Assembly: GCA_037129925.1 (NCBI GenBank)
Contig: JBAXTZ010000002.1
Span: 19,273-83,272, forward strand
Reading direction: 5' to 3'
DNA: 64,000 nucleotides
Source: Bacillota bacterium
GTDB lineage: Bacteria > Bacillota > Negativicutes > JBAXTZ01
Part shown: positions 10,321-28,750 of the stretch, piece after piece
Layout of the letters: every line of letters begins with the position of its first letter
Numbering within the stretch: position 1 is the stretch's first letter
Position numbers and translations under genes: made by a program
The notes under the pieces: model-generated
What the model saw: only the letters and a program-made list of their open reading frames with translations
Database searches by the model: none
What the model was told of the DNA's origin: nothing

Positions 10321-10384
10321 GCGTAATGAGTGTGGTCGTTGGCGGAGTTTTTCGTTTAAATCGCAAGAAGAACAGGGGAGAGAA

Positions 10385-12514: not shown

Positions 12515-12515
12515 G

Positions 12516-12613
12516 ACGCTGCGGCTAATATTTAGTACGCTATGCTAGTATTTAGAACGCTGCGCTAGGACGCGCTTCGCTATATTATAGCGAAGCGTTA
12601 TAGCACGTAGTGC
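12516..12613. repeat. Degenerate ~20-bp tandem repeats plus a perfect 12-bp inverted repeat between hlyB and hlyD
   Basis: acgctgcggctaatatttagt / acgctatgctagtatttaga / acgctgcgctagg; cgcttcgctata-t-tatagcgaagcg at 12573-12597. Confidence 0.7.
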
Positions 12614-12660
12614 GCTATTATCTTCTGTATACCACCAGCAATACTTAACGAGGTAAGCAA

Positions 12661-13986
12661 ATGAGTTTTTTTACAAAATATCTAAAAATCAGCAGCAAAG
12701 ACATCGAACACGAGTTTCTCCCCGATGCGCTGGAAATCAAAGAAAGCCCGCCGTCACCGGCGGGACGGATAATCATCTGGGGAATCTGCATAATTCTGAC
12801 AATAACCCTGATTTGGTCCTGCATCGCGAAAATCGACGAAATCGCCGTAGCCCGTGGTAAACTCATTCCCGACGGCAAGATCAAAGTCATCCAGTCCGAA
12901 TATGAAGGCGTGATTGTAGCCATCAACGTCGTCGAAGGTCAAAAAGTCAAAGCCGGACAAACCTTGCTCGAACTCGATCCGCTGACTGCTAAGACCGAAT
13001 ACGAAAAAGTCCATGATTCACTGCAAATCGCCAAAGCCGAGAAGCAACAATTGCAGAATGAACTAAGCGGCAAACCGAACGCCGCGAATGGATTGCCGGA
13101 AGAATTGCGAAGTTTGTATGCTAATCTCAGGCAAGCCCGCGAATTGCAATATCAGACCAAGCGCGAAACCTACGCCCATAATATGGAAGATGCCAAAAAC
13201 GGACAGCAAAGCGCCGAGTGGTCGCTGAAAGATTCGAAGCGCCATTATGAAATAATTCTGGTCGAAGAAGCCGACCTCAGATACCTCGTCAAAGAAGGCG
13301 GATTATCCAGAGAAAACTACAACCGCAAAGAACGGGAACTGTTCAGCGCCGAGAATGATCTGGAAACCAAACGCGAAGCGGTGGAACAGCAACACGAAAA
13401 ATATCTCGGCGCGGCAAAAAGCTATGAACTGGTGGAATATGAACGCCAAGCCGAATTGCTGAATGCCACTGCCGAGAAAGAAAAACAAATTATCGAATTA
13501 ACGTCTCAATTTATCAAAGCCAAAAAAGCGCTGGAAATGACCAAGATGACATCGCCGGTGGATGGCGAAGTACACGGACTGGCAGCAACGACCATCGGCG
13601 GTGTGGTTAAACCGGCGGAAGTGCTGATGACCATTGTGCCGGAGAATACCCCGCTGATTATCGAAGCGACCGCAGATAACAAGGACATCGGCTTTATTGA
13701 CGTAAACTACCCGGTGGAAATAAAGTTCGATACCTATCCGTTCCAGCGTTACGGCGTGGTTAAAGGCAAAGTAACCTTCGTCAGCCCGGATGCTATCGAA
13801 GATGAAAAACTCGGGCCGGTGTACAAAATCAAGGTGGCGCTGGATTTGAAGACGATACCCAGAACGATAGAAATCTACCCCGGTATGGCAGGAACAGTAG
13901 AAATCAAGACCAACGAAAAGCGGGTAATCGACTTCTTCCTCGATCCGCTGATCAAGTATGCGGATGAGAGTTTGGGGTTAAGGTAG
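12661..13986 (+). CDS. hlyD: Type I secretion membrane fusion protein (HlyD family)
   Basis: EFLPDALEI..PPSP, single TM, lipoyl-like halves, coiled coil, PFQRYG, PGM...EIKT. Confidence 0.93.
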   Translation: MSFFTKYLKISSKDIEHEFLPDALEIKESPPSPAGRIIIWGICIILTITLIWSCIAKIDEIAVARGKLIPDGKIKVIQSEYEGVIVAINVVEGQKVKAGQTLLELDPLTAKTEYEKVHDSLQIAKAEKQQLQNELSGKPNAANGLPEELRSLYANLRQARELQYQTKRETYAHNMEDAKNGQQSAEWSLKDSKRHYEIILVEEADLRYLVKEGGLSRENYNRKERELFSAENDLETKREAVEQQHEKYLGAAKSYELVEYERQAELLNATAEKEKQIIELTSQFIKAKKALEMTKMTSPVDGEVHGLAATTIGGVVKPAEVLMTIVPENTPLIIEATADNKDIGFIDVNYPVEIKFDTYPFQRYGVVKGKVTFVSPDAIEDEKLGPVYKIKVALDLKTIPRTIEIYPGMAGTVEIKTNEKRVIDFFLDPLIKYADESLGLR

Positions 13987-14036
13987 GCGCCAGCGGGCCA
14001 AAATGCAAAACGCAAATAAAATATCGGAGAGAGAAA

Positions 14037-15209
14037 ATGAAAACACTAACAACAAGACTATTGATCGTGGCAATTCTACTCTGCAGCATAGTTTGTGCAG
14101 CGGCACAACCACAGTATGATTTTGCGCAAAACAACAACATGTCGGAATATTACGCCACACAGTACGACAACAGCGGAACCGCCTGGTTACGGGGCGTGGA
14201 GTTAAATGGCATGTTTGACAAAAACAGCCAGAATTACGGAGTAACAGTAATACAACCGTTTTTGGACACAAAAAACGGGTTAACGCATGTGCCATTCTGG
14301 CAGGCAAGTTATACGCGCACAGCCGGTGCAAACTTAAATAGCGCGTTAGATACGGTTAATATCGGTATCGGCTACCGTTTCGTTTCTGCAGTGCGCAGCA
14401 ACATGTACGGCGTGAATTTATTTTACGATAATTGCCTGGACTATTTGCCGGTTGCCGGATTAAATCAGGTTTCGCTGCAACGAATCGGCGCCGGACTGGA
14501 ATATTTTGTCGGGCCGGTCGAAGCGCGTATGAACGGATACTTAGGTTTAGGAAATAACACCCAGACCGCAAGCAACGGCGATATTGTCTCAACCAAAGTA
14601 GTCAACGGATTGGATGGCGCTATCAATACCGATTTTTCTTTCTGGAACGCACCCTGGTTGAAAATAGGTGTGAGCGGATTTTCGAATAATGCTTCAACAA
14701 CTGGTATCACAAACGGATGCAGCGCCACCGCCGCGCTGCAATTAATGCCGCAGTTGAAAGTTGCCGTTGCACAGGATTTTATTAATAACAACACTATTGC
14801 TACAGCGACGATAAACCTGCTGGCGCTGCCGCAACCGGCGTTATTGTTTGCAGATGAATATATAAATGCCAACGCCGAAAAAGATGCCGGATACAAAACA
14901 CTGCTGGCGGTGCAGCGAAACAACAACGTGACTGCTGACGTGAACGTAACCAGGCAAGCTGTTGTTTACCAAGGCTCGCTGGACATAACGGTGACTGATT
15001 CGGCAACCGGGTTGCCGCTTGCGGGCGTGATGGTTGTGTTTAACTCAACCTTGCAAAATACCGGCGCGGACGGTAAGGCAAGCTTCAGCAATATAGCTTA
15101 CGGAAATTATGACTATGTGATAGTCAAATCCGGATACCTATCCCAAAGCAGCAGCTGTACAATCGATTCACCGGCGAAGGTGTTGCCGGTAGCGTTGGTG
15201 GTGCAGTGA
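14037..15209 (+). CDS. Inverse autotransporter (intimin/invasin-like) beta-domain protein with one short Ig-like passenger
   Basis: Signal peptide; NIGIGYR..MYGVNLFYD..QRIGAGLEY..RMNGY barrel pattern; VQRNNNV linker; C-terminal VTDSATGLPLAGV..TGADG..GNYDYVIVKSGY domain. Confidence 0.7.
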   Translation: MKTLTTRLLIVAILLCSIVCAAAQPQYDFAQNNNMSEYYATQYDNSGTAWLRGVELNGMFDKNSQNYGVTVIQPFLDTKNGLTHVPFWQASYTRTAGANLNSALDTVNIGIGYRFVSAVRSNMYGVNLFYDNCLDYLPVAGLNQVSLQRIGAGLEYFVGPVEARMNGYLGLGNNTQTASNGDIVSTKVVNGLDGAINTDFSFWNAPWLKIGVSGFSNNASTTGITNGCSATAALQLMPQLKVAVAQDFINNNTIATATINLLALPQPALLFADEYINANAEKDAGYKTLLAVQRNNNVTADVNVTRQAVVYQGSLDITVTDSATGLPLAGVMVVFNSTLQNTGADGKASFSNIAYGNYDYVIVKSGYLSQSSSCTIDSPAKVLPVALVVQ

Positions 15210-15223
15210 GACAAGTAGTAAAC

Positions 15224-15303
15224 GGGTTTAGGCGCAGGTTGTTCTGCTTCTAAACGCGAGAATTGGGAAAAATGAAATGAAGGGTGGTGGTGTTTTTGAG
15301 GGT
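15224..15303 (+). repeat. 80-bp cassette-leading element, copy 1
   Basis: 72/80 identical (manual count) to 18064-18143; contains hairpin GTTTAG-gc-GCAG-loop-CTGC-tt-CTAAAC. Confidence 0.92.
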
Positions 15304-15347
15304 ACAGACTATTAGTATAAGACAAAGTTTTTCGAGGAGGAATTCTG

Positions 15348-16475
15348 ATGACTAAAACAAAGATGTTGCGTTTTACGGCACTGTGGTTACTGATGCTATT
15401 TGTCTTTGCTTTCCAGATACAAGAGAGTAACTGTGAATTAAGCGGTAATGCTTTCGCCAGCTCTATATCTACCGGCGGGTCCAGTCAGGGATTGAATGAT
15501 GATAGTTTGTTTAATTACACGTTTGAAGCAGGTAAGAATAAACTAAAGTCAGGTGATTATGCAGGGGCTATCAATGACTTTACTGCCGCAATAAATTGTG
15601 GTGATGAAAATCAAGATTTGGCTATTGTTTTCTTGAACAGAGGTGCGGCTTATGCGCACTTAGGCAATAATTCAGCTGCTGTTGATGATTATAACAGCAT
15701 GTTGAAATTGCGCCCAAATTCGCCTGAAGCCTACACCAACAGAGGGCTTGCATATCATGAACTTGGCAAAAATGATCTCGCCATCAGCGATTTAAACGAA
15801 GCGGTACGATTAGCTCCGGGTCAATATACAGTGTACACGAACAGAGGTGTTACTTTTGGAGAGATGGGTGAATATGAAAAGGCGATTGATGATTTTAATT
15901 GCGCAATAAAACTCAAAGGTAATTACTATTATAAAGCTTATTGGGGTAGGGCTTTGGCGTACATTGGTAGTGGCAAATATGATTTAGCCTTGTCGGATTT
16001 GAACTTAATTATTGACAATAATTTCAACGATTTCGATGCTAGGTTTCTGCGTGGAGGAGTATATGTAATTAAAGGTGATTATAATCGTGGCATAAGCGCT
16101 CTGTCCGGAGTGGTCAAATATAGCAAAGATAATAAACCGGCGCTGTTTCTTAGGGGAATGACTTATATCGTAGTCGGAAATTACGATAGCGCCGTCGATG
16201 ATTTTGCTGAACTTGTTAGCCAGCATACGATAATTGGCGATGCCCCAATTAATTCCTGTCTAAAACCGATCTTTGATTGGTGTATGCCAAAGGTTTTGAA
16301 TGAACAATTCGAAAAAAACAACTCAAATGCGGAAATTATTTTCATTAGAGGGTTGGTTGAAAACATGCGCGACGAAAAGGAGAAGAGTCTGGCAGATTTG
16401 AATAACGCGGTAAAAATGAAACCTTCACTGGCGAAAAAATTGCCCTGGTGGATAAGACACGAATTGACGAACTGA
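15348..16475 (+). CDS. Exported tetratricopeptide-repeat protein (cassette 1 partner gene)
   Basis: N-terminal basic/hydrophobic signal; repeated AYxNRGxAY...AIxDxxxAIxL TPR units; GAGGAGG RBS. Confidence 0.88.
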   Translation: MTKTKMLRFTALWLLMLFVFAFQIQESNCELSGNAFASSISTGGSSQGLNDDSLFNYTFEAGKNKLKSGDYAGAINDFTAAINCGDENQDLAIVFLNRGAAYAHLGNNSAAVDDYNSMLKLRPNSPEAYTNRGLAYHELGKNDLAISDLNEAVRLAPGQYTVYTNRGVTFGEMGEYEKAIDDFNCAIKLKGNYYYKAYWGRALAYIGSGKYDLALSDLNLIIDNNFNDFDARFLRGGVYVIKGDYNRGISALSGVVKYSKDNKPALFLRGMTYIVVGNYDSAVDDFAELVSQHTIIGDAPINSCLKPIFDWCMPKVLNEQFEKNNSNAEIIFIRGLVENMRDEKEKSLADLNNAVKMKPSLAKKLPWWIRHELTN

Positions 16476-16497
16476 TTTTTTTGGAGGAGTTGAAAAA

Positions 16498-18093
16498 ATG
16501 ACTATTACGAGCGGTGGAAAAATTTACTCAGTAAGACCAATTGATGGAGCTATTGACACAAAAAGAACATTTGACTTTGCTATGGATGGCAATAATTGCA
16601 TACCGTATTATACGGACGAAATGCAGGATATTACACAGTTTCTTAAGGACGCTGGAATTTATAAAGGCGACGTGTTGCCCGAAGCGAAATTTACAATACT
16701 TGAGGGAGAAAATAGTTGGTTCACTGTCGGCAAAGGTGAGTATTATAACGCCGGTGTTGTGATACATGGCGAAACGGACAAGTTCAGTATTGACGCTGGG
16801 ATAGGCGTGAAGGGTGAACTGGTCACGGAATGGTTTGTTGTTCCAAAAGAGCTAAAAATTCAGGGAGTTGGAGGAGAACTCAAGATTTCCTTTCAAACTC
16901 CAATGGATATTTTGGATATCACTAATGCAATTGATTTGTCGAAATTTACACTTGTCGACACAATTTTGAAGATGGGCAATAAATATTGGAATCAAGCGAA
17001 GGAAATTGTTGACAGCTATTTCCCAAATGAAAACCCGCCACAAGTCACCAACCAATTCGAATTCCACGTTGACCCGCTTGCCGGAATCAAAAAAACTGAC
17101 GTAACTGACCCGAATTATTGGAACGGCAGTTTGCTCAATGGCGGCGGATATAACGGCACGGCTAATTTTGAAGTCAATAAAGATATTTTTGACGCAAATG
17201 GCAAGCTGAGCAACTATGTAAATAATCTGATGGCGGGAAATATTACCGGAGGTATTCGTCCAGGCAACGTTAATCCATCCGAAAATTTCTTCGGAATAAA
17301 TTACGAAATATCCGGGAATATAAACTCTTCCAGTCAGCAAGGCAAAAATATTTCGTATGTTGACCCGTTGATATTGGATTTGAACGGCGACGGTGTTCAC
17401 ATGAGCGATTTTGGCTCGAATCCCGTATTCTTCGACGCTGACAACGACGGCAGTCTGGAGCAAACCGGCTGGGTTTCAGCGCAAGATGGCATTGTCGTCA
17501 AAGACTTAAACAATAATGGTATCATCGACAACATCTCCGAGACAATGTCGGAATACTTTGGCGGGACAGCCGGTGTTGACGGTGGCACGAAGCCGTTTAA
17601 GGATGGTTTTGCGGCGTTGGCGTCTTTAGACAGCAACAAGGACGGAAAATTCGACAGCGCTGACGCTGACTGGGGTAAAGTCAAAGTCTGGGTTGACGCC
17701 AACCACGACGGCAAGACCGATGCGGGTGAGCTGAAATCGTTTGAAGAATTGAACATCAAACAGATAAATCTTGCTAATCAGGCGCAGTCCGGGGAAGTCC
17801 GCGACGGTAACGAAGTGCTGGCGCGCGGGACGTATCTGACGACTGACGGTAAGTTACAGGAAGCGTTAGCGGCTAATTTTCTGGCTAATCCGAACGGCCA
17901 TAAGTTCACCCAGAGCGGAACCGGAACGATTGTTGATACGCAGGGAAGCGGAACAATAGCGGCGGTCAAGGCTTATGTTGCCGGAGATGGCGGCGAGACG
18001 GTGGGCGTTGCGGTGAAGAAAGTCAACAACGCCACTGGCGGCGCGGTTATGACTATGGTTTTTGGGTTTAGGCGCAGGTTGGACTGCTTCTAA
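16498..18093 (+). CDS. Truncated RTX-protein cassette: unique 182-aa head plus conserved linker and self-processing module; no RTX tail or secretion signal
   Basis: GGAGG RBS; residues 183-~516 align without gaps to residues 341-~674 of the 2881-aa protein; ORF runs into the 80-bp element and stops there. Confidence 0.85.
   Translation: MTITSGGKIYSVRPIDGAIDTKRTFDFAMDGNNCIPYYTDEMQDITQFLKDAGIYKGDVLPEAKFTILEGENSWFTVGKGEYYNAGVVIHGETDKFSIDAGIGVKGELVTEWFVVPKELKIQGVGGELKISFQTPMDILDITNAIDLSKFTLVDTILKMGNKYWNQAKEIVDSYFPNENPPQVTNQFEFHVDPLAGIKKTDVTDPNYWNGSLLNGGGYNGTANFEVNKDIFDANGKLSNYVNNLMAGNITGGIRPGNVNPSENFFGINYEISGNINSSSQQGKNISYVDPLILDLNGDGVHMSDFGSNPVFFDADNDGSLEQTGWVSAQDGIVVKDLNNNGIIDNISETMSEYFGGTAGVDGGTKPFKDGFAALASLDSNKDGKFDSADADWGKVKVWVDANHDGKTDAGELKSFEELNIKQINLANQAQSGEVRDGNEVLARGTYLTTDGKLQEALAANFLANPNGHKFTQSGTGTIVDTQGSGTIAAVKAYVAGDGGETVGVAVKKVNNATGGAVMTMVFGFRRRLDCF
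17043..18046 (+). repeat. ~1.0-kb direct repeat, copy 1
   Basis: Colinear with 19760-20763 at a constant 2717-bp offset; about 22 amino-acid differences in ~334 codons (manual count). Confidence 0.95.
17362..17907 (+). other. FrpC-type self-processing module (SPM), copy 1; predicted cleavage D289-P290
   Basis: YVDPLILDLNGDG..FD.DNDG...TGWVSAQDG..V.DLNNNGIIDN..GFAAL..LDSN.D..VWVDAN.DG....EL..FEEL.I mirrors the Neisseria FrpC SPM. Confidence 0.85.
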
Positions 18094-18143
18094 ACGCGAG
18101 AATCGAGAATAATGAAATGAAAGGCGGTGGGGTTTTTGAGGGT
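18064..18143 (+). repeat. 80-bp cassette-leading element, copy 2
   Basis: 72/80 identical to 15224-15303; hairpin stem unchanged, loop changed. Confidence 0.92.
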
Positions 18144-18169
18144 GAAGAAAGTGGCAAAGCTATTGAAAA

Positions 18170-18748
18170 ATGGAGGTGAAGTTGAAAGCAATTAATATGG
18201 TCAAACAATGTTTGTCAGTAATTAAAATTAAGTATTTTGTACTTGGAATGTCTCTTTGTTTCATAGCGGGAACGTATTTGGAATTTGATTATAGCAAATA
18301 TGAGATTATCAGAAAATTCGTGGCGATATCAGCACGAATTATCCCCTTTATTTATTGTGTAGGGGAAATATCTAAAGCGCCGCTCAATCAATTGTTTGCA
18401 TCAATTATTAATATCGGTTGTCTATTTATTGCGTTGCTTACGTTTGCAAGAGCTCTGATTAATTTCGATTCAATTTATGAAAAGACATTGTCATATAACT
18501 TCAAGAAGAAAATTATCTACATGATTGGCGCGTTGATTCTCGGAACACTTATCTATACAATTTTGTTCTCTAAATCGGTTTTACTCACTCGTGATTGGAG
18601 GACGGATTATATGATTAATACGACTTTGGGCATGATACTTTATGGCGGCGCACTTTTTTATGGTGGATGGATCATTTTTTTCGACATAGCACAGAACGTG
18701 ATTATTTATACGGTTTACACAATAAGAAGATGGAGGAATAATGGCTGA
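18170..18748 (+). CDS. Hypothetical ~4-TM membrane protein (cassette 2 partner; candidate immunity protein); start may be TTG 18182
   Basis: Four hydrophobic segments, AT-rich; stop overlaps the start of the RTX gene. Confidence 0.75.
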   Translation: MEVKLKAINMVKQCLSVIKIKYFVLGMSLCFIAGTYLEFDYSKYEIIRKFVAISARIIPFIYCVGEISKAPLNQLFASIINIGCLFIALLTFARALINFDSIYEKTLSYNFKKKIIYMIGALILGTLIYTILFSKSVLLTRDWRTDYMINTTLGMILYGGALFYGGWIIFFDIAQNVIIYTVYTIRRWRNNG

Positions 18749-21700
18749 AGAACGTGTATCAAAAATAAAATGGGATGAAAAAATATGGGGTGTTTTTGGC
18801 GCACTTCAAGATGGTTTTGGAGAAGTTCTAAAGAAAAGTATTAATTCAGGTGAGCTAGATGCGCGACTTGCCAAAATCGGGATAACTGCACACTGTAAAG
18901 TGCTGGGTTCCGCGGGAGATTTTATTTCGATTTCTTCTGCGATATATAGTGGTGATCCGGATAAAATTGGCGACGCGATTTTTTCGTTCGTAGGATCTCA
19001 AATTACCAGTCCTGTAGCCGCAGCATGGTTTGCAGCGTATGCATCTAAGAATGGAATCGATCCGATCATTGGCGGCATGGTTGGAGGATATGTAGGCTCA
19101 GAAGCAGGTGCTCAATTCGGATCGCTCACTTGGCAAACTTTATGGAACGGGATTCAATCCGTAGAAGTAACGAGCGAAGGTGGCACAAACATTTTCACCC
19201 GCAAGCAGTTTCAAGAAGTACATATGCCTGGATATAAAGAGAACTATACAATTGATATGTTCAAGAGAGATTTTGGCGCGGTGAACAGCAATAACAATAA
19301 TATATTCATTGAAAACAAGAATCCGTCTGCACCGATTTCGCCAATCGACACCAACCAATATTATGTCAAATACACAGTACCCGCCAACACGCCTTGGAGT
19401 ACTATTGAAGCGCAGTGGGGTGCGGCAAATGTGCAAGGCTCCGAGAGATATGACGGTACAAAATATTATACCGGCAGCGGATATCAGGTCGCAGAGGCCG
19501 GAACCACTATCCTTATACCCTGCTCGCGCGACTATGCTAAACAGCAGGTTAATGCGAGTGGCGGTATAAATATAGCCGCAAGGATTGGAGCAGGCGGAGA
19601 TTTTTCCTGGGTGGCATCGTTGTCGAATAATATTGAAATTACCGGGAAGTTTTACGCAGACAAGACCGGTATTGATCCGAATAATGTCCAGACCGGAACA
19701 GTAATTGACGTTGTAAATAATAAAGATGCAAATATTGGTTGCTATGATCCGAAACTGGGAGTCACCAACCAATTCGAATTTCACGTTGACCCGTTAGCGG
19801 GAATCAAAAAAACTGACGTAACAGACCCGAATTATTGGAACGGCAGTTTGCTCAACGGCGGCGGATATAACGGCACGGCTAATTTTGAAGTCAATAAAGA
19901 TATTTTTGACGCAAATGGCAAGCTGAGTAACTATGTCAATAATCTGATGGCTGGTAATATAACTGGCGGTGTTAGGCCGGGCAACGTTAATACGTCAGAA
20001 AATTTCTTCGGAATAAATTACGAAATAACCGGGAATATAAACTCCTCCAGTCAGCAAGGTAAAAATATTTCATATGTTGACCCGTTGATATTGGATTTAA
20101 ATAATGACGGTGTTCACATGAGCGATTTCGGCTCGAATCCGGTTTTCTTTGATGCCGACAACGACGGTAGTCTGGAACAGACCGGCTGGGTGTCAGCGCA
20201 AGACGGTGTCGTGGTCAAGGATTTGAATAACAACGGAATAATCGATAATATCTCCGAAACAATGTCGGAATATTTCGGCGGCGTTGCAGGAACAGACGGC
20301 GGGACGAAGCCGTTCAAAGACGGATTTGCGGCGTTGAAATCGCTTGATTCTAATGGTGACAATGTTTTTGACAATAAAGATGCCGACTGGGGCAAGGTAA
20401 AAGTTTGGGTTGACGCCAACCATGACGGCAAGACCGATGCCGGGGAACTGAAATCGTTTGAAGAATTGAATATCAAACAAATCAACCTTGCCAATCAGGC
20501 ACAGTCCGGCGAGGTGCGCGACGGCAACGAGGTACTGGCGCGCGGGACGTATCTGACGACCGATGGCAAATTGCAGGAAGCGTTGGCAGCTAATTTTCTC
20601 GCCAATCCGCTCGGACATAAGTTTGAAAAGAGCGGTACCGGAACGATAATCGATACCCAGGGTGGTAACAAGATTGCTGCGGTAAAAGCCTACGTTGCCG
20701 GAGACGGCGGCGAAACGGTTGATGTGGCTGTCAAAGGTGTGAACAACGCCACCGGCGGCGCGGGTAACGACACTTTGATTGGCGACGCGACCAGCAACTG
20801 GCTGGCAGGCGGCGCGGGCAGCGATACGTTTAACGCCGGAGCCGGGGACGATGTGCTGTTGATTGACGCCGAAGACAAGCAGGAAAACATCCACGGCGGC
20901 GCCGGGATGGATACGGTAATTGCTATCGGTGACAAGGGTATTACGCTGAACATGAGCGCTGCCGAAGTGGAAATCTTTCAGGGCAACCGCGGCGATGATG
21001 TAATTGTCGGCGGCGGCAGCAGCTCGGTATTTATCGCCGGTGGCGACGGCAACGATATCCTCATTGGCGGCGCAGCCAATGACGCGATTAACGGCGAGAA
21101 CGACAACGATATGATCGACGGCGGCGCCGGAAACGACATCCTCCGCGGCGGCCGCGGCCGGGATACTATCTACGGCGGCAAAGGCGACGACTATATCGAC
21201 GGCGGTCAGGACGATGATGCGCTGTATGGCGGCGCCGGTAACGACGTATTGCGCGGCGCAGCCGGGGATGACGTTATCGACGGCGGCGACGGAACCGATA
21301 TTCTCGAACTGTCCGGCAACCTTTCTGAGTACCGGATATTGCGCACCGCTACCGGCATCTGGATCAGCGACACCGTCGCCGGACGCGACGGCACCGATTT
21401 TGTAAAAAACGTTGAAAAAGCCAACTTCAAGGACGTAAGTTTGGTAGACATCCCGTCCAATACCAGTGACGGGCTGGAAAATCCGCTGCCGGTTAAAGAT
21501 ATTATCAAGACTGACAAAGACGGCAAAGCTTTCGACCACACTACCGCGCACTACATTTCCCAAGCTCAGCTGTTGCAAAATGATGTGGATTGGCAAAACG
21601 ACAAGCTGACGATTACCGAAGTAACCGACGCCGTCGGCGGAACGGTAAAATTAACCGAAGCCGGGGATATCCTGTTCACCCCTGACGCCAGTTTCAACGG

Positions 21701-24700
21701 CGTTATGAGCTTCAAATACACCGTCAAAGACGCCAAAGGCAATATTGCCGCGCAGGTAATTAGCGGCGCTGGCGACAAAGCGACGATGCGAGCGGCAGTG
21801 TACCTGAAAACACCGGAACTGCCGGTTGATCCGCTGGTTACCGATCAGTGGTACCTGAACGATGCCAATATCCTGCCGGTCTGGAAAGACTATACCGGTA
21901 AAGGAATACGCATCGGCCAGTTTGAACCGGGCGGTTCCTACGCCACGACCAAAGAAATATTTGATTACCGCCACTACGATTTGAAAAACAATGTCGATGC
22001 CGACTGGCTGGCAGGTAATACCGCCGGTAACATCGCCGGAGAAGGCGCAGACGGCAAATTCAGCAACCATGCGACATTGGTAGCCGGAGTAATGGTCGCG
22101 GAAAACAACGGCCAGGGTGGTGTAGGTGTCGCCTATGATGCCAAAATTGGCGGACATTTTATCGATGCCAAAACAATCGGCGTCGATCTTGCCAAAATGA
22201 AAAACTACGATGTCGTCAACAACAGCTGGGGCATTACGCCTAGTTTTGCCGGATCATTTTTGAATGACGGTTCAATCGTCGTACCATATGCCGGAGCGGC
22301 AATTGAAGGCCGGGGCGGACTGGGAACAGTAATTGTCACATCGGGCGGAAACGACTGCGAGCAAGGCGGTAACGCCAACTACAGTAACGCAACTAATATT
22401 CGTACTGCTATAGCCATCGGTGCGGTGAACGCCAACGCCGATCTTAGCACCCTGCAAGTCGGCGACAAACCGTTCTCCAATCCCGGCGCTAACCTGCTGG
22501 TATCGGCGCCCGGTTCGAATATCACTTCGACTTCGCGGATGATAACGACCGACGACGGCTCGACTTTTGGCGCGGATAACGCCGTATCCCAGGGTACCAG
22601 TTTCGCCGCACCGATAATCTCCGGTATCGTCGCGCTGATGCTGCAAGCCAATCCGAAACTCGGCTACCGCGATGTTCAGGAAATTCTAGCGGTGTCAGCA
22701 CGCAAATTTGCAACAAATGATAATAATGAATGGCACGATAACAGCACCGGTAATTGGAATGGCGGCGGTATGCATTATTCTGACAATTACGGTTTCGGTA
22801 TGGTCGATGCCCGCGCGGCAGTGCGGCTGGCGGAAACCTGGACAGCGCAGCAAACCTTCGCCAACGAAGTACACGTGTTTACCGAAGCGAAAAACGTCAA
22901 CGCCGCGATTACCGACGGCAACAGCATAACCAGCTCGGTAACGCTGGCTAACTGCGATATGCGCATCGAACATGTCGAGGTCAGGGTGCACCTTACCCAT
23001 GACCGCCCGGGCGACCTGATCATCAAGTTGGTCAGGCCAGACGGCACCGAATCAATCCTGATGAACCGGCCCGGCGTGAGCGCAGCAAACTCCAACGGCG
23101 ATACCAGGTTCAATAACTCGGATGAACTGAATTTCGTATTCACAACTACCCACGACTGGGGCGAGAGCCCGGCAGGTGAGTGGAGGCTGGTGGTTACTGA
23201 TGCTGCCACCGGTAAAACCGGAATACTGAAAGACTGGGATATAACCGCCTACGGCAAATCGGGCGCTTTGACCAATGATACATACTATTACACCGACGAA
23301 TACGAAAACCTCGCCGGAACACCCGGACACAATGCGACACTGAACGATACCGACGGCGGCAACGACACCATCAACATTGCAGCGTTATCCAAAGGCGCGA
23401 TCGTTAATATCTCGACCGGCGCCGCGACAGTAGCCGGTAAAGCCCTGACCATCCAGAACCCCGGCACAATTGAAAACATCGTCGGTGGCGAAGGCAGCGA
23501 CACGCTGGTCGGCAACGCGGTCAACAACGTCCTCGCCGGTGGCCGCGGCAATGATACCCTGAGTGGCGAAGGTGGGAATGACGCGTTGTTCGGCGGCAAA
23601 GGCAACAATATCCTGATTGGCGGCAGCGAAAACGACAGCTTCATTATCGAACGCAACGACAATTGCTGCGACACCGTTGCTGATTTTGCTATCGGCGCTG
23701 ACAAACTGGTACTGTCCGGTTTTGACAAGGCAATACTTGCGACGATGACGGTTAGCCAGACCGGCGCCGATACCCGGCTGGCATTCAGTAACGGCCAGTC
23801 GATATTGTTGAAGAACATAACCGCAACAAGCTTCGGTACGACGCTTGCCAATAATCTGAATGTTTGCGTTTCGGCGGAGGGTGTTACTGTTAATGACATC
23901 CTCAACAGTGAGGCTTATGCCTTTGGAAGCGAGAAGACTGAACTAATTTCATATGATGGACTAGGTCAGCAACTACGCTTTTGGGGTGGCGGAAATACGG
24001 ACATTGTTTTTGGAACCAAAAAAAACGATGTGTTGATTGGCGGAACCGGCGACGATATTATCCACGGCGGTGACGGCGATGATGTGATTTATCTGCAGGG
24101 CGACAATCTTATGAGCAGATATAAATATACCGACGAACATGGCAAGGAGCGAATTGAGAATGCCGGAGCATACGGCGAAGCAGGAGCCGACCGGTTTGTG
24201 TTGAAAGAAGGCGGCGGCCTGCAAAATGCGATTTGGGATTTCGAAATCGGCAAAAACGGCGAGGTGATTGACGTTGTCGATTTATCGGAAATTCCCAGCG
24301 CGACCGATTTCTCCCAACTGAGCTTTTCAAAACTTACCTGTAACGAAATGATATTTACTGTGGTTTCGATCAAGACCGACCCGCTGCGCCGCAGCGTTGC
24401 TTTGCGAAATATCAGTCAGGAAGCTTTGAATGAACATCATTTCATATACCGTCCAGGCAACACTCCAGGATTGACGAATGTAACTGGCACTGATTTAGAC
24501 GATAATGATACCGACAGCAACGGAGATAGGATAATCGAAAAACGATTAGTCGGTGACGCTGGAGGCAACGTTCTCGACGGCAAAAAAGGCGCGGATATCA
24601 TGGAAGGCCGTACCGGCGACGATACCTATTATGTCGATAACAAGAACGACAAGGTTATCGAGCTTGCCAATGGCGGCTATGATACTGTCAGAACGACCAT

Positions 24701-27386
24701 CAGTCTGACTAAAGAGGAAAACGGTCTAATAATGGCTGACAACGTCGAGCAACTAGAACTGCTGGGCAAAGATAATCTTAATGCCACCGGTAATGAACTG
24801 AATAACCGCATCGTCGGCAACGACGGTAATAACATCATCGACGGCGGCGCGGGTATCGACACCATGCTCGGCGGCAAGGGGAATGATACCTATATCATCG
24901 ACAACGGTTTTGACCGGGTGTTCGAAGCCGACAGCGAAGGCATCGATACAGTACAGGCCTCGATGTCCTATACGCTCGGCGCTAACTTCGAAAACCTGAC
25001 CCTGATTGGAACCGATGCCATCAATGCGACCGGTAACGAACTTAACAATATCCTCACCGGCAACGACGGCGACAACAAACTCGACGGTCAGATTGGCGCC
25101 GACACGATGGCAGGCGGCAAAGGCAACGATATTTATTTCGTCGATAACGCTGGTGACAAAGTTGTTGAGAATGCCGGTGAAGGTACGGATACCATTATTT
25201 CGTCGGTTGATTATGTGCTGGCAAGCGATGTTGAAAATCTGGTGCTTATTGGCGCCGCGAAAACTGCGTATGGTAATGGTTTTGATAACCAAATAATTGG
25301 TAATGAACTGGATAATAGAATTCTCGGAGGGAAAGGAGATGATCAGCTTTCAGGTGGTCTGGGAAAAGATCAGTATTATTTCAGTTATGATGGCAACGAC
25401 ACTATTTATGAGAAGTACGACGCGGTCCAAGGAAACGATGAAGACGCAATAATTTTTTTGGGAAACAAAATAGATAGTATTGTTTTTTATAGGACTATAA
25501 CAGGCGATTTGATAATAACTTACAAGGACAACTATGCATCTGCATCAAATTCGATAACAGTTAAAAATCATTTTTCTAACGCTGGCGCTCAGATTGAAAA
25601 AGTACAGTTTAACGACAGTACTTTTGTCGACAAAAAATTTATCGAGGCCAATTGTGTTTACGTGGAATCTTTTACAGGAACAAGCGGTAACGATAATTTG
25701 ACAGGAACAGCGGGTAAAGATGTGTTGATTGGACAAGACGGCGCGGATATCATGGACGGGAAAGAAGGCGTCGATGTGATGATCGGTGGTAAAGGTGATG
25801 ACGTCTATTATGTCGATAACGTTGGTGATTCTGTCGGTGAAAAAACAGACGAAGGTTACGACAAGGTGTTTTCGTCGGTTAGCTATTCGATTGGAAATGG
25901 GCTTGAAGACCTTGCGCTTACAGGAACGGATGATATTAATGGCACTGGCAATTTTCTTTCCAATATTATTACCGGAAATTCCGGGAAAAACATCATTGAC
26001 GGTGGGGGAGGATATGGCGCTGATTCACTGTTTGGCTTTGCTGGAAGCGATATTTTGATCGGCGGAGACGGCAACGACCATCTTGACGGCGGAACAGGCG
26101 ATGATGAAATGCGCGGAAAAGCCGGAGATGATACTTATGTAGTCGACAGCATAAATGATAAGATTATCGAAGTTGCCAACGAGGGGAATGACTTAGTTGA
26201 GACTTTAATAAGCTATTCATTAGCTGCAAACCTAGAGGGACTAAAGCTAACAGGGTTAGGGAATATCAATGGAACGGGGAATGAACTCGACAATTATATT
26301 AACGGCAATTCAGGCGACAACACAATTGATGGCGGTATGGGTAACGACAATTTATACGGAAAAGAAGGAAACGATACTTTGATCGGCGGAGCCGCGCGCG
26401 ACTGGTTGGACGGAGGCGCTGGTGAGGATAAAATGTATGGCGGTTCCGGCAATGATTATTATCTTGTGGATAATACAGGCGATCTGGTTTTCGAAAATCA
26501 AAACGAAGGAACTGATACCGTCTTCTCGTCGGTTGATTATACACTTGGGAATAATTTGGAAAATCTTCAGATCAGTGGAGACGCAAGAGTCGCTATTGGC
26601 AACGAACTGGACAATATATTGACCGGAAACAATTGCGGCAATATACTGGTTGGCGGAGCCGGAAATGATACTCTGATCGGTGGAGATGGAGCGGACGAGA
26701 TGCGTGGCGGAACCGGGAGCGACACCTATTGGGCGGATCGAAGCGATACCGTAATAGAAAAAGCGGGAGAGGGTTATGACATAGTCGTTGCTTCTGAAAA
26801 TTATACGCTTACAGCCAATGTTGAGGAACTTCAACTGACAGCAAATTTTAACGTTGACGGTACCGGAAACGAGCTTTCGAATATGATTTATGGTAATTAT
26901 CATGACAATGTGATTGACGGACGCGACGGTGACGACAATCTTAGGGGGAACGAAGGGAATGACACACTCATTGGAGGGAAAGGACACGACCTTTTAGTGG
27001 GTGGAGCAGATAACGATACATATATTTTCAACATAGGCGATGGGCAGGATTCAGTTGCAGAATACTCAGGAACTAATGACCTTGCTAAATTTGGCGCTAC
27101 TGATTTACAGTTGATGATTTCTAGAGTTAATGAAAATTTGATAATATCAACAGGGGGAACAACTGACAAAGTTGAGATATGGTATTGGTACCAAGGCGAC
27201 GGCAACAAAATTGAGACAATCGAAGCCGGTAACGGAAAACGGTTATTATCAACGCAAATTGACAGCCTTATGGCGGCTATGGTTCAGCTGCAAGCACAAA
27301 AAGGCATGTCCTGGAATGAGTTGATTAGTTCTGCGCCGAATGAGACGCAGACGGTACTCAATCAGTTCTGGACGGAAAAGAAGTAA
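18741..27386 (+). CDS. Giant T1SS-secreted RTX protein: glycine-zipper head, SPM, RTX repeats, cadherin-like domain, S8 subtilase plus P-domain, RTX tail
   Basis: Many GGxGxDxLx nonapeptides; NHATLVAG, GTSFAAP and EHVEVRVHLTH..PGDL..GEW.L motifs; RTX-type C-terminal secretion region. Confidence 0.93.
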   Translation: MAEERVSKIKWDEKIWGVFGALQDGFGEVLKKSINSGELDARLAKIGITAHCKVLGSAGDFISISSAIYSGDPDKIGDAIFSFVGSQITSPVAAAWFAAYASKNGIDPIIGGMVGGYVGSEAGAQFGSLTWQTLWNGIQSVEVTSEGGTNIFTRKQFQEVHMPGYKENYTIDMFKRDFGAVNSNNNNIFIENKNPSAPISPIDTNQYYVKYTVPANTPWSTIEAQWGAANVQGSERYDGTKYYTGSGYQVAEAGTTILIPCSRDYAKQQVNASGGINIAARIGAGGDFSWVASLSNNIEITGKFYADKTGIDPNNVQTGTVIDVVNNKDANIGCYDPKLGVTNQFEFHVDPLAGIKKTDVTDPNYWNGSLLNGGGYNGTANFEVNKDIFDANGKLSNYVNNLMAGNITGGVRPGNVNTSENFFGINYEITGNINSSSQQGKNISYVDPLILDLNNDGVHMSDFGSNPVFFDADNDGSLEQTGWVSAQDGVVVKDLNNNGIIDNISETMSEYFGGVAGTDGGTKPFKDGFAALKSLDSNGDNVFDNKDADWGKVKVWVDANHDGKTDAGELKSFEELNIKQINLANQAQSGEVRDGNEVLARGTYLTTDGKLQEALAANFLANPLGHKFEKSGTGTIIDTQGGNKIAAVKAYVAGDGGETVDVAVKGVNNATGGAGNDTLIGDATSNWLAGGAGSDTFNAGAGDDVLLIDAEDKQENIHGGAGMDTVIAIGDKGITLNMSAAEVEIFQGNRGDDVIVGGGSSSVFIAGGDGNDILIGGAANDAINGENDNDMIDGGAGNDILRGGRGRDTIYGGKGDDYIDGGQDDDALYGGAGNDVLRGAAGDDVIDGGDGTDILELSGNLSEYRILRTATGIWISDTVAGRDGTDFVKNVEKANFKDVSLVDIPSNTSDGLENPLPVKDIIKTDKDGKAFDHTTAHYISQAQLLQNDVDWQNDKLTITEVTDAVGGTVKLTEAGDILFTPDASFNGVMSFKYTVKDAKGNIAAQVISGAGDKATMRAAVYLKTPELPVDPLVTDQWYLNDANILPVWKDYTGKGIRIGQFEPGGSYATTKEIFDYRHYDLKNNVDADWLAGNTAGNIAGEGADGKFSNHATLVAGVMVAENNGQGGVGVAYDAKIGGHFIDAKTIGVDLAKMKNYDVVNNSWGITPSFAGSFLNDGSIVVPYAGAAIEGRGGLGTVIVTSGGNDCEQGGNANYSNATNIRTAIAIGAVNANADLSTLQVGDKPFSNPGANLLVSAPGSNITSTSRMITTDDGSTFGADNAVSQGTSFAAPIISGIVALMLQANPKLGYRDVQEILAVSARKFATNDNNEWHDNSTGNWNGGGMHYSDNYGFGMVDARAAVRLAETWTAQQTFANEVHVFTEAKNVNAAITDGNSITSSVTLANCDMRIEHVEVRVHLTHDRPGDLIIKLVRPDGTESILMNRPGVSAANSNGDTRFNNSDELNFVFTTTHDWGESPAGEWRLVVTDAATGKTGILKDWDITAYGKSGALTNDTYYYTDEYENLAGTPGHNATLNDTDGGNDTINIAALSKGAIVNISTGAATVAGKALTIQNPGTIENIVGGEGSDTLVGNAVNNVLAGGRGNDTLSGEGGNDALFGGKGNNILIGGSENDSFIIERNDNCCDTVADFAIGADKLVLSGFDKAILATMTVSQTGADTRLAFSNGQSILLKNITATSFGTTLANNLNVCVSAEGVTVNDILNSEAYAFGSEKTELISYDGLGQQLRFWGGGNTDIVFGTKKNDVLIGGTGDDIIHGGDGDDVIYLQGDNLMSRYKYTDEHGKERIENAGAYGEAGADRFVLKEGGGLQNAIWDFEIGKNGEVIDVVDLSEIPSATDFSQLSFSKLTCNEMIFTVVSIKTDPLRRSVALRNISQEALNEHHFIYRPGNTPGLTNVTGTDLDDNDTDSNGDRIIEKRLVGDAGGNVLDGKKGADIMEGRTGDDTYYVDNKNDKVIELANGGYDTVRTTISLTKEENGLIMADNVEQLELLGKDNLNATGNELNNRIVGNDGNNIIDGGAGIDTMLGGKGNDTYIIDNGFDRVFEADSEGIDTVQASMSYTLGANFENLTLIGTDAINATGNELNNILTGNDGDNKLDGQIGADTMAGGKGNDIYFVDNAGDKVVENAGEGTDTIISSVDYVLASDVENLVLIGAAKTAYGNGFDNQIIGNELDNRILGGKGDDQLSGGLGKDQYYFSYDGNDTIYEKYDAVQGNDEDAIIFLGNKIDSIVFYRTITGDLIITYKDNYASASNSITVKNHFSNAGAQIEKVQFNDSTFVDKKFIEANCVYVESFTGTSGNDNLTGTAGKDVLIGQDGADIMDGKEGVDVMIGGKGDDVYYVDNVGDSVGEKTDEGYDKVFSSVSYSIGNGLEDLALTGTDDINGTGNFLSNIITGNSGKNIIDGGGGYGADSLFGFAGSDILIGGDGNDHLDGGTGDDEMRGKAGDDTYVVDSINDKIIEVANEGNDLVETLISYSLAANLEGLKLTGLGNINGTGNELDNYINGNSGDNTIDGGMGNDNLYGKEGNDTLIGGAARDWLDGGAGEDKMYGGSGNDYYLVDNTGDLVFENQNEGTDTVFSSVDYTLGNNLENLQISGDARVAIGNELDNILTGNNCGNILVGGAGNDTLIGGDGADEMRGGTGSDTYWADRSDTVIEKAGEGYDIVVASENYTLTANVEELQLTANFNVDGTGNELSNMIYGNYHDNVIDGRDGDDNLRGNEGNDTLIGGKGHDLLVGGADNDTYIFNIGDGQDSVAEYSGTNDLAKFGATDLQLMISRVNENLIISTGGTTDKVEIWYWYQGDGNKIETIEAGNGKRLLSTQIDSLMAAMVQLQAQKGMSWNELISSAPNETQTVLNQFWTEKK
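19760..20763 (+). repeat. ~1.0-kb direct repeat, copy 2
   Basis: Colinear with 17043-18046. Confidence 0.95.
20079..20624 (+). other. FrpC-type self-processing module (SPM), copy 2; predicted cleavage D447-P448
   Basis: YVDPLILDLNNDG and the same downstream Ca-binding motifs as copy 1. Confidence 0.85.
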
Positions 27387-27420
27387 AGATTCGCGATCAC
27401 AATTGATTAAACACTGATCA

Positions 27421-27459
27421 CTGCAATATTTTTCTGCAATATTTATCTGCAATATTTTT
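27421..27459. repeat. Three tandem 13-bp repeats directly upstream of the rplS -35 box
   Basis: ctgcaatattttt / ctgcaatatttat / ctgcaatattttt. Confidence 0.85.
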
Positions 27460-27460
27460 C

Positions 27461-27489
27461 TTGTCAAAATATTGGCAGTGTAATATAAT
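27461..27489 (+). promoter_or_regulatory. Sigma-A-type promoter of rplS
   Basis: TTGTCA, 17 bp, TATAAT. Confidence 0.75.
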
Positions 27490-27503
27490 ACTATTGCTAT
27501 ATA

Positions 27504-27543
27504 CGGATGGTCCTCTGGATGGGTGCGCCTGCCAAGAACATCT
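27504..27543 (+). ncRNA. Probable L19 ribosomal protein leader
   Basis: gatggtc...gaacatc outer stem between the promoter and the rplS RBS, resembling the Firmicute L19 leader. Confidence 0.55.
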
Positions 27544-27560
27544 ATGATGCAGGAGGCAAA

Positions 27561-27902
27561 ATGAATTTAATCGAATTGTTGGATCAAGAACAATTGCGTA
27601 CCGACTTACCGGCGTTTCGCGCCGGAGATACTTTGAAGGTAATGGTAAAAGTCGTCGAGGGAACGCGTGAGCGTTTGCAAGCGTTTGAAGGCGTGTGCAT
27701 TAAACGGAATGGCGGCGGAATTCGTGAGACATTTACTGTTCGCCGTGTTACCTATGGAATTGGCGTGGAACGTACATTTCCTACACATTCGCCGCGGGTT
27801 GAGCGCATTGAAGTTGTTCGTCGCGGTATTGTCCGACGCGCGCGCTTGTACTATTTGCGTGAATTAACCGGTAAAGCCGCTCGTATTCGCGAAAAAAGAT
27901 AA
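27561..27902 (+). CDS. rplS: 50S ribosomal protein L19
   Basis: [28 protein letters not shown]; AGGAGG RBS before ATG 27561. Confidence 0.98.
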
Positions 27903-27910
27903 TTTGATTT

Positions 27911-27940
27911 GGAGCCGAAAGGCTCCTTTTCTTTTTTTTT
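27911..27940 (+). terminator. Intrinsic terminator after rplS
   Basis: ggagcc-gaaa-ggctcc plus long T tract. Confidence 0.9.
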
Positions 27941-27985
27941 GCGTCAATTTCTGTTATAATGACTAACCGTTATGCGGAGGAAAAT

Positions 27986-28750
27986 ATGATTTCGATCTTT
28001 AAGAATTTTTTCTCGCGCCAGAAAAAATATTCGGCAGCCGAGCTTGATTTAAACGCTCTGCCAAAGCATTTGGCAATTATTATGGACGGAAATGGACGCT
28101 GGGCAAATAAACGCGGTTTGCCACGGTCTTTTGGACATAAACAAGGCAGCGAAAACTTGCGGGATATTGTTCGCGCAGCCGGGAATATTGGCATCAAAAT
28201 GCTGACGGTGTACGCTTTTTCAACTGAAAATTGGAAACGACCGGCAGAAGAAATTGATTATCTGATGCTGTTGCTTACACAATACTTAGACAACGAGTTA
28301 CCTGAACTGGATAAAAACAATGTTCGCTTGCGATTTATCGGCGATACCTCAATATTTTCCGAGACGATCCGCAATAAAATCAGCTATGATGTAAACTTTC
28401 TTGCCAAAAACAGTGGAATGATTTTTAATATTGCGCTCAATTATGGCGGGCGGGACGAGATTGTCCGTGCAACCAAAACAATTGCTGAGCGCGTAGTTGC
28501 CGGAGCGCTTTCAATTGATAAGATTGATGAGCAAGTTTTTGCTGAAGCTACATATACTCCGGCTTTCCCGGATGTCGATTTATTAATTAGAACCAGTAAA
28601 GATATTCGGGTGAGTAATTTTCTGCTTTGGCAAATTGCTTATGCAGAAATGATTTTTGTGGATATTTTTTGGCCGGATTTTGTTCCGCAACGGTTGATGG
28701 AAGTTATTCTCGAGTTTCAAAATCGCAATCGACGCTTTGGAGGTCTATGA
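27986..28750 (+). CDS. uppS: Undecaprenyl diphosphate synthase
   Basis: HLAIIMDGNGRWA, YAFSTENWKRP, LNYGGR, SNFLLWQ. Confidence 0.97.
   Translation: MISIFKNFFSRQKKYSAAELDLNALPKHLAIIMDGNGRWANKRGLPRSFGHKQGSENLRDIVRAAGNIGIKMLTVYAFSTENWKRPAEEIDYLMLLLTQYLDNELPELDKNNVRLRFIGDTSIFSETIRNKISYDVNFLAKNSGMIFNIALNYGGRDEIVRATKTIAERVVAGALSIDKIDEQVFAEATYTPAFPDVDLLIRTSKDIRVSNFLLWQIAYAEMIFVDIFWPDFVPQRLMEVILEFQNRNRRFGGL

Follow-up and report, generated by a model that had tools for sequence, protein, structure and literature searches.

An FrpC-type self-processing module at the junction of variable heads and a constant RTX carrier in a Negativicutes locus

The stretch analysed here (the window) comprises 64,000 nucleotides of a Bacillota bacterium known from freshwater metagenomes (Negativicutes; contig JBAXTZ010000002.1, positions 19,273 to 83,272) and encodes a giant repeats-in-toxin (RTX) protein of 2881 residues (18741-27386) and, upstream of it, a shorter open reading frame (ORF) of 531 residues (16498-18093), called the orphan below. 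By sequence and predicted fold, both carry a genuine self-processing module (SPM) belonging to the FrpC/ApxIVA type. Here, and in several unrelated bacteria, the module lies exactly where a constant RTX carrier meets a hypervariable head that has an upstream gene of its own. On balance we think it probable that the SPM-RTX protein is a polymorphic and probably antibacterial effector, exported by a type I secretion system (T1SS) and released by the SPM, with the gene upstream of the head acting as immunity factor. All parts of this locus, from the exporter gene to the carrier, are on the forward (+) strand of the window.

Identity and predicted activity of the self-processing module

The SPM of the giant protein is encoded at 20079-20624 and that of the orphan at 17362-17907. 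The translation of 20079-20624 opens with DPLILDLNNDG and continues with TGWVSAQDG, DLNNNGIIDN, GFAALKSLDSNGDN and VWVDANHDG. The predicted scissile Asp-Pro bond of the giant protein is D447-P448 (20079-20084, with the D447 codon at 20079-20081), and the same block in the orphan opens with D289-P290 (17362-17367). The interval 20079-20624, the start at 17362, the motifs and the residue positions had been given by a first-pass annotation made from the letters of the DNA, and all of them were reproduced by translation.

The assignment of both modules to the FrpC type, also proposed in that annotation, was borne out by profile and structure comparison. When residues 401-670 of the giant protein were compared with all PDB sequences using phmmer, the two FrpC structures were matched with E 2.5e-30 (6sjw) and 6.8e-30 (6sjx), the best match beyond these reached only E 0.089, and the alignment to the FrpC module began at the Pro that follows the scissile bond. 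A profile made from 26 relatives matched 6sjw with E 1.7e-56 and spanned chain positions 1-175 of 179, and the identity between the SPM of the window and that of FrpC was ~39% across the complete 177-residue module. The SPM was modelled by AlphaFold2 on the alignment of relatives (pLDDT 88.7, pTM 0.86). In a Foldseek search of the PDB with this model, 6sjw and 6sjx were the sole matches below E 0.001 (E 6.6e-16, TM-score 0.69/0.78), the next match being at E 0.79; the module is therefore assigned to the SPM fold, which is defined by two perpendicular beta-sheets and adjacent N- and C-terminal strands. The Asp-Pro at the module start was invariant in the alignment of relatives (A1), and the SPM of the orphan was 94% identical to that of the giant protein.

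The roles of individual FrpC residues were taken from Kuban et al. 2020 (PMC7078468) and mapped onto the SPM of the window by alignment. Four EF-hand-like Ca2+ sites are described there for FrpC, namely D419-G424 plus D456, D462-E474, D499-D511 and D521-E532, and all four were kept in the aligned SPM of the window: the incomplete EF-hand D419/D421/D423/G424 with D456 corresponds to D452/N454/D456/G457 with D488, and the other three loops are intact in the phmmer alignment (DLNNNGIIDNISE, DSNGDNVFDNKDA and DANHDGKTDAGE). The T-shaped Trp pair W451/W519 of FrpC corresponds to W483/W556 and was present in 90/90 aligned relatives with Asp-Pro, a set that had been pre-selected for this dipeptide. 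FrpC G491 is likewise kept, as G528.

Two further positions are unfavourable to cleavage. In the HMMER alignment FrpC D478 corresponds to G514, with Gly in 56/57 members of the subfamily, and FrpC D579 corresponds to A616 or A617. These two aspartates provide the carboxylates of a transient fifth Ca2+ site in FrpC, and by alignment the SPM of the window has neither of them; E613 and N618 are candidates for taking their place near the Asp447 carbonyl. In FrpC the exchange D579A is reported to abolish cleavage and D478A to lower it, while D579N is tolerated (PMC7078468). Because both aspartates are replaced by Gly/Ala here, Ca2+-dependent cleavage at D447-P448 would be expected for this Gly/Ala subfamily by analogy with FrpC and is not assured; the case for activity, as judged from the alignments, is built on conservation of the Asp-Pro and not on the FrpC residues.

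This conservation was examined in the best 149 of the 18,666 relatives found in a search with the SPM; every domain was re-located and was kept if it aligned from query position 3 or earlier. Asp-Pro was present in 94/111 N-proximal first SPM domains (start before residue 1000) and in 3/152 further or deeper SPM-like domains, which have AP, PP, SP, TP or other pairs in its place. Among the 79 relatives that are at least 49% identical to the SPM of the window, all of which belong to the Gly/Ala subfamily, 73 have Asp-Pro and one has Tyr-Pro, the start being uncovered in the remaining 5. The Asp-Pro is thus kept specifically where the module sits behind an N-terminal head, which argues for a functional scissile bond despite the absence of the FrpC aspartates.

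The same counts bear on a different explanation, in which the module would be a non-cleaving, Ca2+-binding spacer with the SPM fold that only helps in the structure or folding of the RTX protein; the deep copies without Asp in other giant proteins presumably play such a part. The replacement of D478 and D579 would fit such a spacer, as would the fact that SPM-like domains without Asp-Pro are common (149/152 of the deeper domains). We regard it as unlikely, since Asp-Pro was found in 73/74 close relatives whose start was covered, all from the same Gly/Ala subfamily, and the difference between 94/111 and 3/152 is difficult to account for if the bond has no role. In addition, D579 is variable among the more FrpC-like members of the family too. 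A subfamily that keeps the Asp-Pro without the D478/D579 pair could be informative about the mechanism of the SPM.

As a domain, the SPM of the window is a further member of a very large known family, and membership alone is ordinary. Out of 1.84 billion cluster representatives, the search returned 18,666 with E<=1e-3, of which 10,375 had E<=1e-10 and 386 had E<=1e-30. The public names of close relatives are 'S8 family serine peptidase', 'RTX toxin', 'bifunctional hemolysin/adenylate cyclase' and 'hypothetical', and the SPM is named in none of them. Some giant RTX proteins (P0011, P0012, P0052, P0054 and others) have 2-4 tandem SPM-like domains far from the N-terminus, among which the Asp-Pro frequency is the 3/152 given above; these apparently represent a non-cleaving paralogue of the SPM fold. 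In four genomes from other families of the class (G055, G033, G012 and G045; loci L013, L015, L017 and L018) we observed proteins of ~370 residues with the motif AIDPLVIEF followed by a remote SPM-like stretch (E ~1e-7 to the block of the window) and without RTX repeats.

The SPM and its clip-and-link chemistry have been well described (PMC7078468, PMC3034196), and SPMs are in use as self-excising tags and in NeissLock (PMC7846742, PMC7078468, PMC12538545), with homologues already screened for speed (PMC12538545). The first-pass annotation had suggested a possible new self-cleaving tag. What is left of this suggestion is that the window provides another SPM, with the D478 and D579 positions not conserved; the use itself is not new, and as a biotechnological tag this SPM adds little because faster ones are already in use.

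Variable heads and the orphan reading frame

The two heads in front of the module are unrelated to each other. Head 1 comprises residues 1-340 of the giant protein (18741-19760), with a Gly-rich, predicted helical N-domain at about residues 20-136 and an uncharacterised remainder, and head 2 comprises residues 1-182 of the orphan (16498-17043). Behind the heads the two proteins run in parallel, residues 183-516 of the orphan aligning without gaps to residues 341-674 of the giant protein with 312/334 positions identical (93%). This shared block starts with a constant linker of 106 residues, encoded at 19761-20078 in the giant gene (residues 341-446) and at 17044-17361 in the orphan (residues 183-288). 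The linker had been recognised in the first-pass annotation and proved real, its two copies being 97% identical. It is weakly similar to the region before the SPM in many relatives, which suggests a pre-SPM domain that has been conserved. Right at its start the linker has another V-D-P-L motif (FEFHVDPLAG; giant residues 348-352, orphan residues 190-194; 19768-19776), probably a coincidence, as it is not followed by an SPM.

The orphan stops at 18093, just where the first RTX repeat of the giant protein would start. It has neither an RTX block nor a C-terminal secretion signal and therefore, as judged from its translation, cannot be exported as it stands. The reading frame is nevertheless intact, and its ATG lies behind a GGAGGAG motif, a good ribosome-binding site.

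Each head has its own gene immediately upstream. Head 1 is preceded by an ORF of 192 residues (18170-18748) with the hydrophobic sequence of a polytopic membrane protein, which overlaps the start of the giant gene and is a candidate immunity or partner protein of head 1. In front of head 2 lies a gene for a tetratricopeptide repeat (TPR) protein (15348-16475; multiple TPR families in Pfam) with a signal-peptide-like N-terminus, a candidate partner of head 2 by its position. Both of these units of partner gene and head are in turn preceded by a copy of an 85-nucleotide direct repeat. Copy 1 (15224-15308) stands directly in front of the TPR gene, the first gene of the orphan cassette, and copy 2 (18064-18148) stands upstream of the multi-transmembrane gene and the head 1 cassette. 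The copies are 88% identical and are the only two in the genome. Copy 2 starts 15 nucleotides after the end of the homology between orphan and giant gene, the point at which the first RTX repeat of the giant protein starts, and the repeat is a possible second crossover site.

At the DNA level the shared block of orphan and giant gene was only 83% identical. Synonymous differences were found in 113/334 codons, with a synonymous divergence (dS) of 1.09, a nonsynonymous divergence (dN) of 0.057 and dN/dS of 0.053. Given this divergence the orphan is not a recent duplicate, and its constant block has evolved for long under constraint at the protein level, as a working protein. Identity was uneven along the block when measured in bins of 60 nucleotides: the bins starting at 17070 and 17130 (~120 nucleotides, 17070-17189) showed 93-98% identity, as after gene conversion, and in parts of the SPM identity fell to 53-75%. 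There were only nine identical runs of at least 20 nucleotides, the longest being 71 nucleotides. The first-pass annotation had regarded the conserved block both as release machinery and as recombination homology. The second role may hold at best for the start of the linker (17070-17189), together with the 85-nucleotide repeat, and the divergence speaks against it for the block as a whole.

Such a pattern would be left if the gene had once been complete and its 5' end had then been displaced by an incoming unit of repeat, membrane ORF, head 1, linker and SPM. The arrangement is not an assembly artefact, because 17680-18236 is bridged by a contig assembled from a different metagenome run. In four other runs from lakes or freshwater, contigs contained short pieces matching the locus, with no differing letters among the matches listed. 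In one of the runs (X2) a contig matches the orphan from 17680 on and has a different SPM-like sequence upstream, perhaps a third variant, perhaps a chimera of that assembly. A scan for promoters and terminators in 9800-19000 gave no usable signal (18 promoter-like sites, with 15 expected), and Rfam gave no match in 9000-28000 or in locus L003 of the second SPM-RTX family described below.

Whether the orphan acts as a reserve for ongoing switching of heads is finely balanced, and the chance that it is a mere relic of one past replacement of the 5' end falls just short of even. The high synonymous divergence and the shortness of the identical runs would be expected of a relic, no recombinant joint between orphan and giant gene was seen in the parts of the locus covered by contigs of the four other runs, and head 2 was found nowhere else (among proteins of 931-2655 residues and in 400 other genomes of the class). 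A relic would not by itself account for an intact reading frame with its ribosome-binding site, for the ~120 nucleotides of high identity at the linker start, for the flanking repeats that offer a second crossover site, or for the recurrence of such arrays in other taxa.

The same layout in other genomes

The draft genome from which the window comes (G000, 146 contigs) contains a second SPM-RTX family, the SPM of which is 43% identical to that of the window (loci L003-L006 on contigs C35, C28 and C16; C35:74194-78260, C28:1-2288 and C16:1226-3049). It consists of one truncated head-SPM ORF, two heads whose contigs end within the SPM, and a single constant 3' part with RTX repeats, and each of its heads is preceded by a multi-transmembrane ORF. 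Three contigs break inside the shared SPM and the assembly cannot say which head joins the single RTX 3' part. A dispersed repeat of ~200 nucleotides, which lies between two cassettes of this family (C35:76490-76700), was observed on at least 15 other contigs with 69-99% identity.

In the sister species (G001) the order of genes is T1SS ABC exporter, HlyD, a unit of transmembrane ORF and truncated head-SPM, and a unit of transmembrane ORF and head-SPM-RTX, with several more such units. The sole relative of head 1 in 400 other genomes of the class is a head of this species, 31% identical over residues 3-170. This head is fused to the other SPM/RTX scaffold, that of the second family, yet it is preceded by a homologue of the 192-residue ORF (BLASTP E 7e-6), and it follows that a head and its upstream gene move together and independently of the carrier. 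A third genome (G011) has an orphan head with its own transmembrane ORF, followed by a transmembrane ORF of the RDD family that overlaps an SPM-RTX gene of 3628 residues, and its SPM-containing block is 55% identical to that of the window.

The co-variation of heads and upstream genes was assessed in 14 cassettes of these three genomes, which form 91 pairs. Homology was found in both head and upstream gene in 4 pairs, in just the head in 5 and in just the upstream gene in 3 (Fisher p = 0.0014). This p value overstates the independence of the cassettes, which are related to each other, with orthologous loci making up two of the four concordant pairs. The matches confined to the head were mostly in short segments before the SPM.

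In named genomes, 577 stretches encode relatives of the SPM, the closest of which (60-65% identity) are from Syntrophorhabdus, Variovorax, Pseudomonas, Pandoraea, Actinobacillus seminis and [Haemophilus] felis. Among 75 loci that were kept, more than one ORF with Asp-Pro was found in 7 (within a flank of ~4 kb) and none by pattern in 7. In the six arrays compared, the SPMs of the cassettes were 87-100% identical to each other. The heads of L046, L047, L081 and one L034 pair matched at just 24-41% over at most 245 residues, and those of L056 at 53% over 113 residues.

Export, carrier and the proposed function

A T1SS is encoded on the same strand 4.7-8.4 kb upstream of the giant gene. The HlyB-type ABC exporter (10319-12514) scored 902 bits against the NCBIfam model TIGR01846 (cutoff 726) and contains the Pfam domains ABC_membrane, ABC_tran and Peptidase_C39, and it is followed by the HlyD-family membrane fusion protein (12661-13986; HlyD_3, HlyD_D23 and Biotin_lipoyl_2). 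The N-terminal C39-like domain of the exporter reads DSGLAAL and has Ser at the putative catalytic position, where true C39 peptidases have Cys. The HlyD gene is separated from the cassettes by a gene that takes the place in which one might expect a TolC-like gene and encodes an outer-membrane-like protein of 390 residues with a signal peptide (14037-15209; inverse-autotransporter beta-domain and CarboxypepD_reg).

The carrier part of the giant protein (20625-27386) starts with RTX repeats and continues with a Cadherin_5/Big_9 domain (21528-21761), a Peptidase_S8 domain (subtilase; 21960-22730, E 2e-27), a P-domain (P_proprotein; 22965-23246, E 1e-19), more RTX repeats and HCBP_related. HemolysinCabind was matched in 18 stretches (E 9e-95), which together with the ABC and HlyD genes places the module in an RTX/T1SS setting. 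PF26745 is among the precomputed domains listed for the giant protein. By eye, its C-terminal end resembles that of the second RTX family on contig C16. The carrier is common to many close relatives; of the 48 shortest of 83 complete relatives with Asp-Pro, which were scanned for domains, 9 have S8 together with the P-domain. Across 20001-24000, where the giant gene encodes RTX and subtilase parts, the G+C content was 0.53-0.54, compared with 0.41-0.45 on either side; this may stem from the codons of the Gly/Asp-rich repeats or from a foreign origin. Farther downstream in the window, a gene of the DNA polymerase III alpha type is present as two ORFs, 34671-36062 (OB fold and PHP) and 36059-38398 (alpha NTPase, finger and HHH), which overlap by 4 nucleotides; the gene may be split or frameshifted, or the assembly may be wrong here.

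The account that we favour builds on what was observed of homology and fold, of the conserved Ca2+ sites, of the layout of the locus and of the selection to which the orphan was subject; the cleavage, toxicity, immunity and cassette switching in it are what we infer from them. The giant protein would leave the Ca2+-poor cytosol unfolded through the adjacent HlyB/HlyD T1SS. Outside the cell the SPM would fold around four Ca2+ ions and strain the D447-P448 bond, Asp447 would attack its own carbonyl, and the chain would break. The N-terminal fragment of 447 residues (head 1 and the 106-residue linker) would end in a reactive Asp anhydride, which would be hydrolysed or linked to a nearby amine, and the C-terminal fragment of 2434 residues would hold the SPM, RTX, cadherin, subtilase and RTX parts. 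Release of head plus linker after secretion, which the first-pass annotation had put forward, would follow from the homology to FrpC. The head and the gene just upstream would form one exchangeable cassette, and the orphan would be what remains of an earlier version, a 5' end that was displaced. The payload would probably be antibacterial (bacteriocin-like) and the upstream membrane protein would be its immunity factor, so that the locus would amount to a mirror-image polymorphic toxin system.

The nearest known counterpart is FrpC (and FrpA) of Neisseria meningitidis (PDB 6SJW/6SJX), which shares with the protein of the window the Asp-Pro start, the fold, the four Ca2+ sites, the Trp pair, the RTX carrier and the T1SS, as well as an N-terminal region that varies over ~350-450 residues and, directly upstream, a gene for a partner. 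In contrast to FrpC, the SPM of the window has Gly/Ala for D478/D579, the partner is a multi-transmembrane protein and not a lipoprotein like FrpD, the carrier contains a subtilase and a P-domain, a truncated spare cassette lies upstream, and the source is freshwater metagenomes, not a commensal of animals. ApxIVA of Actinobacillus pleuropneumoniae is comparable by description, as an SPM-bearing RTX protein that cleaves in vitro, and deletion of its SPM is reported to attenuate virulence (PMC7078468). Tandem cassettes are also present in other Pasteurellaceae (Actinobacillus seminis and [Haemophilus] felis), in relatives whose SPMs share 60-61% identity with that of the window.

With the polymorphic toxins of the contact-dependent inhibition (CDI), Rhs and MafB types (Zhang et al. 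2012) the locus shares a variable tip on a constant scaffold, seen also in G001 and G011, and it has an adjacent small gene that may co-vary with the tip. It further shares silent truncated cassettes with a conserved junction (here the linker-SPM block and the 85-nucleotide repeat, with arrays in other genomes) and a predicted autoproteolytic release module. By analogy the locus would mirror these systems, with the tip N-terminal, the partner gene and the orphans upstream, and release by a Ca2+-triggered SPM; the place of the tip follows from the T1SS signal, which occupies the C-terminal end. The comparison does not extend to a toxin domain, as none was recognised in head 1 or head 2.

MARTX toxins are also giant T1SS-exported RTX proteins that free internal effector domains by autoprocessing (PMC3034196). 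In their case a cysteine protease domain does the processing inside host cells once inositol hexakisphosphate has activated it, whereas the trigger for the protein of the window would be extracellular Ca2+. A cysteine protease domain of the MARTX type was not found in the giant protein by Pfam, which gave only RTX, S8, P-domain, cadherin/Big_9 and HCBP_related. To our knowledge, the Cdz proteins of Caulobacter are small and have neither an RTX carrier nor an SPM. By description, CdzC/CdzD form a glycine-zipper bacteriocin of T1SS-exported, Gly-rich and membrane-active antibacterials with an immunity gene (PMC5380434).

An adhesive role is one alternative. In the published model of FrpC (PMC5472700, PMC7078468) the N-terminal ~350 residues, which are variable among FrpC-like proteins, are bound tightly by FrpD (PMC5472700); the clipped fragment would be held on the surface of the producer by the partner protein while the Asp anhydride links a host, a particle or another cell, the module serving as glue and not as part of a poison. 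The cadherin-like domain in the carrier would suit adhesion, and so would LysM, a glycan-binding domain, in 8/48 heads of relatives. For the locus of the window we nevertheless consider adhesion improbable. The upstream partner is a polytopic alpha-helical membrane protein and not an outer-membrane lipoprotein like FrpD, and is thus unlikely to hold an extracellular fragment, and adhesion leaves unexplained why unrelated heads have private upstream genes and why spare cassettes accumulate upstream. It is for these reasons that we favour a released effector over adhesion.

LysM in those 8 heads, and Phage_lysozyme in 1 of the 48, may also be taken as an antibacterial hint. The Gly-rich, predicted helical residues 20-136 of head 1 resemble the N-domains of P0042, P0050 and P0129, heads that contain LysM (phmmer domain E 1e-4 to 0.2 in a set of 93 sequences). 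A LysM domain in head 1 itself, read by eye at about residues 208-262, was dropped as it had no support from hidden Markov models.

A number of observations weigh against the effector reading, in addition to the replaced aspartates of the SPM and the lack of recombinant joints described above. No recognised toxin domain or informative relative was found for either head: neither of the heads, nor the linker, nor the 192-residue ORF was matched by a Pfam or NCBIfam family; homologue searches with head 1 returned nothing among proteins of 596-2000 residues and only itself among those of 1584-5042 residues; the head profile and head 2 matched nothing below E 0.5 among PDB sequences; and Atlas look-ups of the heads gave sub-threshold leads only (LysM/Gly-zipper_Omp 0.83, 'putative RNAase' 0.88). 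When residues 1-640 of the giant protein were modelled by AlphaFold2 the SPM was good, and the head had a pLDDT of 30-60 and its model was unusable. Since head 1 has no window of 19 residues with a Kyte-Doolittle mean of at least 1.5, and a strongly hydrophobic window of this length was found in only 18/91 heads of a family sample, the label of pore-former for head 1 is no more than a guess. The upstream ORFs matched no immunity family, the best being an Rce1-like match of E 0.015 for one ORF of the sister species. Among the cassettes of the three genomes there was one long head match (pair j-l, 124 residues) without a matching upstream gene, and 2/6 arrays in named genomes contained near-duplicate heads (L049, 90%; L034 pair 1-2, 87%).

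Parts of this picture have precedents. Bayer-Santos et al. 2019 reported an antibacterial effector of a type IV secretion system that is homologous to the N-termini of 221 RTX proteins, and Burroughs et al. 2025 described toxin domains N-terminal to RTX repeats (PMC12419801). In the available text of the 2012 survey of polymorphic toxins (PMC3482391), 'FrpC', 'Asp-Pro' and 'T1SS' each occur 0 times, and in the open-access literature (PMC and bioRxiv) we found no description of SPM-RTX loci as polymorphic systems with upstream orphan head-SPM cassettes.

As a locus, the arrangement is a mirror-image variant of the polymorphic toxin organisation. We tentatively suggest, with more doubt than for the locus itself, that SPM-bearing RTX proteins, the FrpC/ApxIVA group included, may be widespread T1SS polymorphic effectors with an N-terminal payload, an upstream immunity gene and cassettes, and release triggered by extracellular Ca2+, the anhydride maybe serving as a tether to amines of the target envelope. 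The effector reading extends a 2019 suggestion that FrpC and FrpD are an effector-immunity pair. If it is true, clip-and-link would serve to free a T1SS-delivered effector from its secretion carrier, which would be a concrete and testable answer to an old question, and type I secretion, with reversed polarity, would be added to the repertoire of polymorphic toxins.

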